DNA from: a virus
Lineage: Duplodnaviria; Heunggongvirae; Uroviricota; Caudoviricetes
IMG/VR virus record: IMGVR_UViG_2671180673_000002
Reading direction: 5' to 3' (one strand)
DNA: 19,302 nt
The number at the start of each line of letters is the position of its first letter. Within the stretch, counting starts at the first letter, position 1. The position numbers were made by a program. Positions 15,001-18,000 of the stretch are shown in pieces.

Positions 15001-18000
15001 CCACCGAACTGAAGTGCAATTCGGTGATCGAGTTCACTGTCACAGAGGTCAACCACACGACCACAGAGACGGCACTGCCCGGCGTCCCTGAGCCAGATAT
15101 GACGCTTGAGGGAAACACGTGCACTGCCACTGACACGACGCTGTTCACCCTTCAGAATATTCACCCGTCGGGTATTCAGTGTTTTGATTCTGCTCTGGAG
15201 TGTACGAAGCTCAGCCATGTAAAATCCCCGTCATATGGCAATCAGTAAAGGAAATAAATATGTCATCGAAAAACCGTACCCGCAGAACCACAACCCGCAA
15301 TATCCGTTTCCCCAATCACATGATTGAACAGATCAACATCGCCCTTGAGCATAAAGGGTCCGGTAACTTTTCAGCGTGGGTTATTGAAGCCTGCAGGAGA
15401 AGGCTGGCAACAGATGCAACGCATCTGCGCCCGGCCAGCATGACAAATAACGAGAAATGAACGTTCGGTTACAGGAGCAGGTACCCACTGTCCTCCAACA
15501 ATATTTCATCTTCATATCCGACGGAACAATACTTACCCTGCCGGGATGTACAGAATAACAACAGAGTGATAATTAATTTCTGATGAAATAATCAGTGTGC
15601 AGAAGGACTAAAGATAAACGTTTTCTTCACGCCTTTACACGGCCTGTCCTTCTCAAATCGCCATTTTGCCATCGCCTTTACAACCTGCTCATCAAACAGA
15701 TGGTGCGGCTCTGAACGAATAAACTCAATTCGGGTGACAGTACCATCAGCACCAATATCAAACCTCACATCAACCCGTCCCTTTATATAATTTGCCGCTG
15801 CATAGGCCGGATATTGTGGTAATGCCTTAACCAACTGTCGGGGCATATCTGTTTTATGTTGCGTACAGCCCATAACCAGAGAAGACAACAAAATAATTAA
15901 CGGAAGATTTCTTTTCATTTTCATTCCCCGCACAGATAAGAATAAGTCTTATTCTAACAATGCCGCCCTGTCGGTCATCAATCCTCTGCTTAATGGCAAC
16001 GACAATTATCCGACTTAAATCACAAATCAGACACATGACATAACAGGGCTTGCGAGGTAACACATCGTCCTGTTTCTTCCACCATCGCACCGGACTGGCG
16101 ACTATGAGGGGACAACGCCGCGCTCCGTTAACGCGGTAAACCCCGGTGTGTATCGTTTTTGATTATCCCCGCACACTCGCGCAGAGGAGTCTCCCTGTCG
16201 GGCTGCGGTCTCTGTTAATGAGGGAATACAGCGACGATACGGCGCATCAGCAAAACTTAGTTCAGGCACTGAGTGCGGATATAGTCCTGTGCCCCTTCCA
16301 GCTGCTTCTGCATTGTCATCAACCGTTCTCTGAGGATGAAATAATCCCGTTCAGCGGTGTCTGCCAGTCGGGGGCCGGTTGCATTATCCACGCCGGAGGT
16401 GCCGGTGGCTTCACGCACGGTACCGGAGCAGGTGGCGTTGATCCGCAGGCGCTTACGACCAGCGGCAACATCAGCACGCAGAGTTTCATTTTCAGCTCTC
16501 GCATCGGCTAATTCCCTCGAGTATCTGGCATCAAGTTCAGCGACATCACGCTGGCGTATCTGCATATCAGTAATTGTCGCGTTCGCCAGTTTCAGCTCAC
16601 TGACTTTTTTATCGCGCTGCGCTTTGTAGGTGATGGCGTTATCGCGGTAATGATTCAGCCCCAGACTAAGCACACCACAGGCTACCAGCAGGACAATAAT
16701 CACCACACACAGAACACGGTTCATATCACCACCAACGGATTGCCCAGACCAGAACAGCAATGGCCACAATACGAATGGCAAATGCCATTGCCCGAATAAG
16801 TTCAGCACTCATCTTTTTAAAGTTCACGATTTCAGCGCAATGACCAGTTTTGCCAGCCCATACAGCATCGGAGACACAGCAATACCAACAGCCACCCACT
16901 TAATAGCAAAAGCCAGCGCTCTGCTGATGTCATCAGTCACTGTCACCCCAGCAGCCCCGACGAAGACAACATCACCCAGGCGAGGGACAGAAAAAGAGCA
17001 ACCAGCATTAGTGAAAATGAAATACCGACAATCACACACAGGACCTTTGCCGGCGTTATGAGTTTGTCTGACATAGCTACCCCTTAATTGCCACAATTAA
17101 CTGGGATACTACCCATAAAAAAGGGATGCTCCAGACCAGCAAAAATTTCCAGTTTGGTAATTGACTAATCATGAGTCGCAACTCCCTAATCAGTTTGCTA
17201 AAATCAATCAAGGCAGCCTCCCATAGCTTACTGCCATAAAAACAAAACCCCGCTTGCTGCCAACAAACGGGGTTTTTACTTTTATTCACTTACATTTTGC
17301 CAGTTCGCAGGATTTCGTGTTATCCGTCCGCCTTGGCCAACGTCATTTATTAGCAAAATATTCTGCTTATCTGTCGATTCCCCAGCACGCCAGCGCGCTC
17401 TCCTGGTCACGACGGGATACCTGACCGTAACAGTTATTTGAGCGAATACGGCAGTCCCTGCCACCGTCCTTAATCCACCAGCGAATCGCCTCACACGCTC
17501 CCCTGCGATCACCTGCATTAATTCGTTTATAAAACGTCGACGGAAAACACTTACCGGGGCCAATGTTGTACGGACAGAATGACGCGATCCCCGCTTTCTG
17601 GGGTTCACTCAATGGCACTCTGATGTTTTTCTCCACCCATGCCAGCGCCTTATCACGCTCAATGGCGTTAACCCGGTCGCATTTTTCCTTCGACAACTTC
17701 ATGCCCGGAACGACAGGTTTGCCATCCACCAGGATGGCACCGCGGCAGATGGTCCAGATACCCGCGCCATCACGGTATGCCGTGGTGTGGTTACCTTCCT
17801 TTTCATCCAGAAACTGGTCGAGAATGTCAGGCGCAGGCGCACCAGCGGCAATCAGCGCCAGAACGGCAGCCGACAGGCCGTATCTGATTTTTGCGTTCAT
17901 GGATATTTATCAGGATTTATCGGTTTCTGCCCACGGACAGGTTTATCTGTTCCGGTCAGTGACTTAAGGTTGTGATTCCGGAGGAGTCTTCAGAGAACCA

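Follow-up and report, generated by a model that had tools for sequence, protein, structure and literature searches.

The antisense ylcI-like gene of a lambdoid prophage: predicted fold and relatives in lambda and phage satellites

Three groups of described proteins come closest to the gene considered here. Mnt and Arc, ribbon-helix-helix repressors encoded in immI of phage P22, are small and basic; lysogens express mnt from a promoter of its own that lies within a late region, and the gene diverges from the promoter that it represses. TacA, ParD, CopA_SO and the N-terminal domain of PutA, which are ribbon-helix-helix antitoxins and CopG-type regulators, form a second group. The third consists of YlcI (DLP12, b4589) of Escherichia coli K-12 and YnfO (Qin). 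The stretch analysed, referred to as the window, comprises 19,302 nucleotides of a Caudoviricetes virus (IMG/VR record IMGVR_UViG_2671180673_000002). The gene in question lies at 15260..15460 on its plus strand and is called ylcI below. By hidden Markov model (HMM) its product belongs to the same family as K-12 YlcI and YnfO; it also has the same size, and the gene has the same antisense position by a small-terminase gene. It differs from K-12 ylcI in the tail of its product (residues 51-66), in its association with an HNH endonuclease gene and a Terminase_2-type terminase rather than cos-Nu1 (nohD), and in having no YbcV/YbcW-type neighbour. On balance, we favour the reading that ylcI encodes a dimeric repressor-type protein of the ribbon-helix-helix class, made from a promoter of its own and probably in the lysogen, a judgement that leaves its target out of account.

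As an object the gene is already known: annotation pipelines have a name for the family, and the identical protein is in RefSeq. E. coli NCCP15648 carries DNA that is 100% identical, with the same gene order, and there the product is annotated 'YlcI/YnfO family protein' (WP_000095744.1). A literature search found no functional study of ylcI, ynfO or DUF3950. Taken by itself, the ylcI of the window is unremarkable, a conserved hypothetical gene that existing annotation covers, and a proposed link to the neighbouring lipoprotein gene does not hold. The additions made here are the fold assignment, the rejection of that link, an unannotated copy in phage lambda and the architecture of a switch region in satellite relatives.

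The gene and its predicted fold

The open reading frame (ORF) at 15260..15460 (+) comprises 66 codons plus stop and is identified by the ORF listing, by HMM matches and by its ratio of non-synonymous to synonymous substitution rates (dN/dS). Its product, MSSKNRTRRTTTRNIRFPNHMIEQINIALEHKGSGNFSAWVIEACRRRLATDATHLRPASMTNNEK, is very basic (pI 11.5; 12 lysine and arginine residues against 5 aspartate and glutamate residues). The sequence reads a Shine-Dalgarno element, AAGGA, at 15248..15252 (+), 7 nt 5' of the ATG; phages JLK-2012 and BP-4795 have AGAGGAAAGAAAATG at this position. The sequence-only reading had described a 66-amino acid (aa) basic protein with a good ribosome-binding site, and this description is confirmed. 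A longer version starting from GTG at 15200 was rejected in favour of ATG 15260, because the homologues all begin MS[ST]KNRT and do not use that start.

Assignment of the product as YlcI-like, also proposed earlier, is supported by two models, each scoring above its cut-off: Pfam PF13132 (DUF3950; E=4e-20, 71.8 bits, cut-off 25) and NCBIfam NF041551 (YlcI_YnfO_N; 35.3 bits, cut-off 30). The PHROG match is phrog_949 (E=2e-33), which is function-less in annotation. All 18 aligned family members match PF13132. GNFSAWV at residues 35-41 and IRF at residues 15-17 occupy columns that are invariant or nearly so in the family alignment, and the product combines the size (approx. 50-80 aa), the N-F-S-A-W-V motif and the I-R-F strand that characterize the family.

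Over the first 52 codons, window and lambda copies differ by dS=1.33 and dN=0.069 (dN/dS=0.05); comparisons with the lambda, L004 and BP-4795 copies give dS 1.1-1.3, dN 0.07-0.09 and dN/dS 0.05-0.08, values that rule out a chance ORF. The gene is genuine and strongly conserved. That the ORF is untranslated, being accidental or decaying, or that only an antisense transcript matters here, would fit with the lack of annotation of the lambda copy in NC_001416, and is scarcely credible given a dN/dS of 0.05 at saturating dS, a conserved Shine-Dalgarno element, family HMM scores far over threshold, and the survival of intact copies across thousands of genomes as well as in cryptic prophages of long standing. 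Codons 1-50 are conserved, whereas an alignment of copies places a variable tail at codons 51-66 (15410..15457, +), wholly different among the window, lambda, BP-4795 and L004-type copies. The 3' end of the gene also contains an imperfect hairpin detected by repeat search at 15402..15436, GGCTGGCAACAGATGC-AAC-GCATCTGCGCCCGGCC, with arms of 16 bp and folding energies of -19.4 (plus) and -21.4 (minus) kcal/mol (z -2.05 and -2.51). No T run follows it and no terminator was called there; it could have an effect on the ends of convergent transcripts.

An AlphaFold2 model of the monomer, built on an alignment of 18 diverse members, reached a pLDDT of 70, which is moderate confidence. The model consists of an extended segment (residues 14-18), a helix (19-32), a four-residue turn and a second helix (37-55), and so shows the strand-helix-helix topology of ribbon-helix-helix proteins with the short turn before the second helix. 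The conserved core corresponds to codons 12-50 (15293..15409, +), comprising the strand TRNIRFP, helix 19-32, a GSGN turn with the NFS motif and the helix from residue 37. Its closest structural matches are the antitoxins TacA1, TacA2, ParD and CopA_SO, and Arc is among the Foldseek matches. Aligned with hhalign to Arc, YlcI gave P=0.022 in the expected register. None of the 18 members matched a Pfam ribbon-helix-helix family at E<=10, and neither phmmer nor a profile search matched YlcI to a PDB chain. Model and fold searches together, the check that had been suggested for this protein, indicate a likely ribbon-helix-helix fold for the YlcI/YnfO family, an assignment that we hold with good though not complete confidence. 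At that reasonable level of confidence, a 'domain of unknown function' becomes a testable repressor hypothesis.

By analogy with other ribbon-helix-helix proteins, YlcI would dimerise, and the resulting two-stranded sheet (residues approx. 12-18, T-R-N-I-R-F) would enter the major groove, allowing the protein to act as a sequence-specific repressor. On the predicted fold, the residues contacting DNA would be T12, N14 and R16. Mnt and Arc are likewise small and basic and have the same predicted order of strand and helices. An N-x-R-x-P strand motif is common to YlcI (NIRFP) and to these two proteins (NLRWP, NFRMP), although they have no significant sequence similarity to YlcI. The window also differs from P22 immI in that no ant operon or gene, and no recognisable or repeated operator boxes, lie beside ylcI. 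The earlier suggestion of 'a regulator' is therefore reasonable as far as the predicted fold goes, whereas the particular target proposed, the lipoprotein gene, is not borne out.

The antitoxins at the head of the structural matches, together with a weak PHROG match of the product to a HicB-like family (E=0.007), raise the alternative that YlcI represents the antitoxin half of a type II toxin-antitoxin pair, as an orphan or a remnant. Two further observations could be read in this way. The ylcI stop codon overlaps the ATG (ATGA) of a 33-aa ORF at 15457..15558, and in lambda, in DLP12 and in L004-type prophages ylcI has a YbcV-like DUF1398 gene further along its own strand, adjacent to it in the last. 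The 33-aa ORF, however, which alone follows ylcI on that strand of the window, has no counterpart in lambda, where an unrelated 17-codon ORF is found, or in BP-4795, whose downstream sequence is different. The DUF1398 gene is absent beside ylcI in the window, JLK-2012 and BP-4795, and we know of no report of DUF1398 as a toxin. Beside the window gene there is no match to a toxin family, the next gene being convergent, and defence-system models (PADLOC) gave no match. The satellite copies mostly stand alone. Compared with TacA, ParD, CopA_SO and the PutA N-terminal domain, to which its identity is 10-20%, YlcI has no partner toxin gene, and the toxin-binding C-terminal extension of antitoxins and CopG-type proteins is replaced by the short variable tail. 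No conserved, adjacent, co-transcribed toxin gene accompanies ylcI, membership of a type II system was rejected, and an antitoxin origin is very doubtful.

Expression and lambdoid contexts

Because ylcI is antisense to the late operon, it needs a promoter of its own, as its orientation had been taken to imply. A consensus scan of the plus strand upstream of the gene found a single sigma-70-like match, CTGACA-17-CAGAAT at 15130..15158 (+), which falls within the 5' part of HNH and counts as a candidate promoter only. The site is kept in JLK-2012 and BP-4795, which is not independent evidence because it lies in HNH coding sequence. In K-12, ybcW and ylcI form a convergent excludon listed among the overlapping transcript pairs in at least half of RNA-seq samples (PMC12288877). 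DLP12 is a cryptic prophage, so this transcription of ylcI is not late-operon transcription. The same data on the DLP12 orthologue lend indirect support to the possible expression in the lysogen envisaged by the sequence-only reading (PMC12288877). We favour the view that YlcI is produced from a dedicated promoter, without dependence on transcription of the late genes, and most probably during lysogeny.

The lambdoid contexts examined were the window, JLK-2012, BP-4795, lambda, a DLP12-like prophage and the loci L004, L034, L035 and L037. In every one of them ylcI runs counter to the late operon; its divergent neighbour is HNH or Nu1, and no other gene lies closer to the packaging start. The terminase types beside it differ, with HNH and Terminase_2 in contexts of the window type and cos-Nu1-A in lambda, DLP12 and L004. 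Between window-type and lambda-type copies, DNA similarity extends from the start codon to about codon 52, while flanks and tails are unrelated; ylcI therefore behaves as a small mobile cassette. The protein of the window has approximately 75% identity overall to the lambda/DLP12 type, rising to 88.5% over residues 1-52, and the predicted DNA-reading strand, TTTRNIRFPN, is identical across phage-type copies. It forms a self-contained unit of about 50 conserved codons with a variable tail, placed at the junction of the lysis and packaging modules of lambdoid prophages.

The best-studied phage, lambda, retains an intact and strongly constrained ylcI about 200 bp from cos that has escaped annotation. 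In NC_001416 the 64-aa orthologue is encoded at 48109..48303 (-), 199 bp from the right cohesive end, with no RefSeq feature. The DLP12-like prophage at locus L016 encodes exactly the protein of this copy (L002 3110-3304, minus). The lambda gene opposes the late transcript, and no further gene separates it from cos. Upstream it has the 199 bp of cos-proximal DNA in place of HNH, downstream it is followed by lambdap79, lambdap78 and bor, and outside the ylcI coding sequence there is no flanking DNA in common with the window. Between cosQ and ylcI, lambda 48446-48464 (L002 3447-3465) contains a perfect 15-bp palindrome, TGATAATGATTATCA. The 19-mer around it agrees with the Fur-box consensus at 16 of 19 positions and is kept with small changes in DLP12-type prophages.

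The constant position suggests another role for YlcI, that of an accessory DNA-binding factor at or near cos which modulates terminase, for instance by protecting cos in the prophage or by aiding site recognition. Despite the differing terminases, no gene in any of the lambdoid contexts is closer than ylcI to cos or to the first packaging gene, and repeated GTTAACAT boxes lie between HNH and the small-terminase gene of the window. In addition, a satellite protein of 129 aa (P0191; L003 4714-5103) fuses a YlcI domain to a small-terminase N-terminal DNA-binding domain (Terminase_2 E=1.7e-6). For packaging of lambda, however, purified terminase, IHF, gpFI and proheads suffice, and a minimal cos works without the ylcI region in cis. 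A gene antisense to the transcript that makes terminase would be poorly expressed during packaging, most family members are in satellites or at chromosomal sites far from any cos, and the P0191 fusion is found on a single contig only. Moreover, the cos regions of lambda and the window have no common motif, though the YlcI reading strand is identical. A function at cos is accordingly unlikely. The second domain of P0191 resembles the N-terminus of the small terminase of the window.

Satellite homologues and family spread

Relatives of ylcI in satellites offer what may be the best clue to its mode of action, by analogy of layout. About 20 loci are integrase-alpA-...-primase islands, satellites resembling P4 or phage-inducible chromosomal islands (PICIs); two of them were seen adjoining tRNA genes. 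In these islands the ylcI-like gene is the sole gene on the opposite strand and lies between the alpA/integrase side and the primase operon. The switch regions, about 150 bp upstream of the gene, are those of L003, L046-L048, L050, L053, L057, L060, L062, L067, L068, L071, L074, L077 and L082. A near-consensus promoter, TTGAC[GAC]-17/18 nt-TAnnnT, is present on the opposite strand upstream of the ylcI-like gene at 15 of 16 satellite loci and faces the primase operon. Its spacer contains a 12-14-bp box, (G)GTG-N6-CAC(C), and a second box follows just after the -10 element, 23-26 bp from the first. On the side of the ylcI-like gene, a further (G)GTG-N6-CAC(C) box comes after the TATAGT/TATGGT hexamer that precedes the gene and resembles a -10 element. 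An example of this divergent arrangement of promoter and repeated boxes is L062 5870-6000. The centres of the boxes vary between satellites and agree within one (GTGCACAAACAC, GTGCGGCCACAC, GTGTGCGCACAC, TGTTTAAACAC, TGGTACGTACCA). There is a loose correspondence between the box and the residues immediately preceding IRFP, which are RN in phages, as opposed to KG, KK, KH or KN in satellites. On the primase side, the switch is followed by a conserved leader hairpin and then by an ORF of about 60 aa (MAxxQxTQTRPKFxYRF...).

The satellite layout is that of a repressor gene placed back to back with the operon that it would control, like Mnt at Pant of P22; in having this mnt-like divergent layout the satellite homologues differ from the gene of the window. 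The arrangement suggests a so far undescribed repressor/operator system. In the PICI literature examined, no repressor is described for Gram-negative PICIs, and it is the helper that activates alpA. If true, the satellite switch would give Gram-negative PICI-type elements a repressor, where present descriptions have control by alpA only. Rpp, which redirects packaging in PICIs, was considered as a relative of YlcI and rejected, being an unrelated winged helix-turn-helix protein (PMC6739421). RNA-family models applied around ylcI and in the satellites gave nothing beyond tRNAs.

Long minus-strand ORFs over the satellite ylcI-like genes were rejected as genes: they have no Pfam match, nor any codon-position bias outside the overlap with ylcI. 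Two such ORFs are annotated, one of 224 aa in Pasteurella phage Pmp7 (OR544138; L088 4435-5109) and one of 324 aa in vB_KppS-Ant (LR881103; L089 6997-7971), and one of the two is labelled 'transcriptional repressor'. Both extend across the ylcI-like gene and the switch region and, to judge by the equivalent ORFs at other loci, are probably wrong-strand gene calls.

Several results weigh against the reading of phage YlcI as a repressor made from its own promoter. (i) The promoter candidate of the window agrees with consensus at only 9 of 12 positions, the count of such matches in the region is no higher than in shuffled sequences, and the consensus scan found no promoter match upstream of lambda ylcI. 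(ii) No operator was found near phage-type ylcI genes. The 150 bp upstream contain no repeated 11-mers, and a common operator for lambda-type and HNH-type upstream regions was rejected, as these have no shared inverted repeat. (iii) The binding of satellite YlcI-like proteins to the boxes would follow from position only. (iv) An nhmmer profile of the satellite switch had no match in lambda, DLP12, the window, JLK-2012, BP-4795 or the chromosomal loci. An arrangement in lambda seen by eye, CCACGTCAA...TATCGT, was considered as a decayed form of the satellite switch (TTGACGTG...) and discarded when the profile gave no match there.

The lack of a target in cis could be accommodated if phage YlcI acted in trans on satellites, either repressing their replication operon (anti-satellite immunity) or poisoning their repressor through mixed dimers (helper-dependent induction). 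The narrow family is common to lambdoid phages of the helper type and to PICI/P4-like satellites of the same hosts, the satellite copies lie in an operator-rich switch, searches for a cis target of the phage copy came up empty, and helper-activated alpA is the control described for Gram-negative PICIs, with no repressor among the components. This proposal is nonetheless entirely inferential. The residues preceding IRFP differ between phages and satellites, and the boxes are element-specific. We regard such crosstalk as improbable. A broader form of the idea is that YlcI proteins are undescribed repressors of satellite primase operons acting through GTG-N6-CAC, and that lysogen-expressed phage copies, that of lambda included, act on these switches in trans; it is speculative and can be given only a small chance.

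By megablast, copies are present, up to seven per genome, in at least 1464 of the 5426 complete E. coli genomes. Phage records with ylcI number 151 by tblastn, and most belong to Stx-converting or lambda-like phages. The family is narrow, and only 101 clusters were found at E<1e-3 among 1.84 billion representatives. Genuine members come from Enterobacterales, Gilliamella and one Pasteurella element. Streptomyces, Pseudomonas, Cohnella, Flavobacterium and metagenome bins were rejected as true hosts, their contigs being 99-100% identical to the right end of lambda. Dozens of assemblies contain lambda (L007-L033, L036, L038-L040, L054, L065), many of the contigs being about 3.5 kb long. This contamination with lambda or sequencing-control DNA inflates the apparent host range of YlcI. 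YlcI-like genes also occur at fixed chromosomal sites in Pantoea, Erwinia and Rouxiella (L075-L083, L041), in Tatumella (L045, L049, L052, L070) and in Salmonella. In Pantoea and Erwinia the gene directly follows a same-strand cluster of four genes (approx. 445 aa, approx. 349 aa, then two of approx. 550-590 aa). Such fixed positions suggest that the chromosomal genes are domesticated regulators.

The lipoprotein gene and the surrounding window

Downstream of ylcI, and convergent with it across a gap of 131 bp, lies a gene for a lipoprotein with a TonB_C domain (15592..15933, -). The sequence-only reading had proposed that YlcI regulates this gene through a perfect palindrome, and the corresponding explanation makes YlcI its repressor, bound over the promoter. 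The 17-bp palindrome, AGAATAAGTCTTATTCT, at 15939..15955 is real: it is upstream of the lipoprotein gene, is part of the lipoprotein cassette and is unique in the window, where none is expected by chance. It overlaps the -10 and start region of an extended -10 promoter-like site, ATGACC-16-TGnTAGAAT, at 15978..15951 (-), and from this position it could plausibly serve some regulator as an operator. Binding by a dimeric ribbon-helix-helix protein is conceivable at a sequence of this kind, and ylcI is adjacent in all seven phage records that have the window-type allele of the lipoprotein gene.

Those seven records are near-identical, however, and provide no independent co-occurrence. The cassette is present in 14 phage records in all, the other seven having phage 21-like alleles, so that more than 140 of the 151 phage records with ylcI are without the lipoprotein gene, as are most of the E. 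coli genomes counted above. In BP-4795 and many Stx phages the order is HNH-ylcI-Rz, the lipoprotein gene being absent. Lambda, DLP12 and other prophages that carry ylcI likewise lack it. Phage 21 and its relatives show the reverse, a lipoprotein gene without ylcI, and there only the right half of the palindrome is present. The exact palindrome occurs only in the window and the near-identical JLK-2012. Because the reading strand is identical in phage-type copies, a dedicated operator should travel with ylcI, and none does: no similar site with up to five mismatches was found near ylcI in lambda, DLP12, L004, L034, L037 or BP-4795, and with half-site searches, which also covered L016, likewise empty, the palindrome was rejected as a general YlcI operator. 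Across independent genomes, then, ylcI, the lipoprotein gene and the operator are not inherited together, and the proposed regulation fails on this point. The palindrome is unlikely to be the target of YlcI in this phage, and a specific repressor of the lipoprotein gene is an improbable role for the protein.

A host regulator is an equally good and plausible candidate for the palindrome. The sequence agrees with the Fur-box consensus at 13 of 19 positions, and regulation by the host would fit a TonB-related gene. The lipoprotein region (15592-15978) encodes a lipobox, LVMGC, and has a G+C content of 40-45%, below that of its neighbours. The gene looks like a moron expressed in the lysogen and is possibly iron-regulated. 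The PHROGs label for its family, 'Rz-like spanin', looks like a misnomer.

On its other side, ylcI diverges from the HNH endonuclease gene (14853..15218, -), the two start codons being 41 bp apart. These coordinates agree with the arrangement originally described, antisense to the late genes between HNH and the lipoprotein gene. Beyond HNH lie the genes for the small terminase subunit (13999..14562, -) and the large terminase subunit (12341..14002, -); on the lysis side are Rz (16257..16808, -) and the endolysin gene (17367..17900, -). The statement that ylcI is the only plus-strand gene appears to hold for convincing genes and needs one qualification. In a near-identical prophage, RefSeq has another hypothetical protein on the plus strand, encoded in a part that is different in the window. 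The remaining plus-strand ORFs of at least 100 aa in the window overlap long minus-strand genes.

At 14633-14761, in the 290-bp gap between HNH and the small-terminase gene, a GTTAACAT(T/G)T box occurs five times, with copies in either orientation. The copies include a perfect 12-bp inverted repeat, GCAAATGTTAAC-N9-GTTAACATTTGC, and are probably cos or small-terminase binding sites. In the lysis region the window differs from the otherwise identical NCCP15648 prophage. An X in the translation of the ORF at 17964..18314 (-) corresponds to at least one ambiguous base at approximately 18297-18299 of the window.

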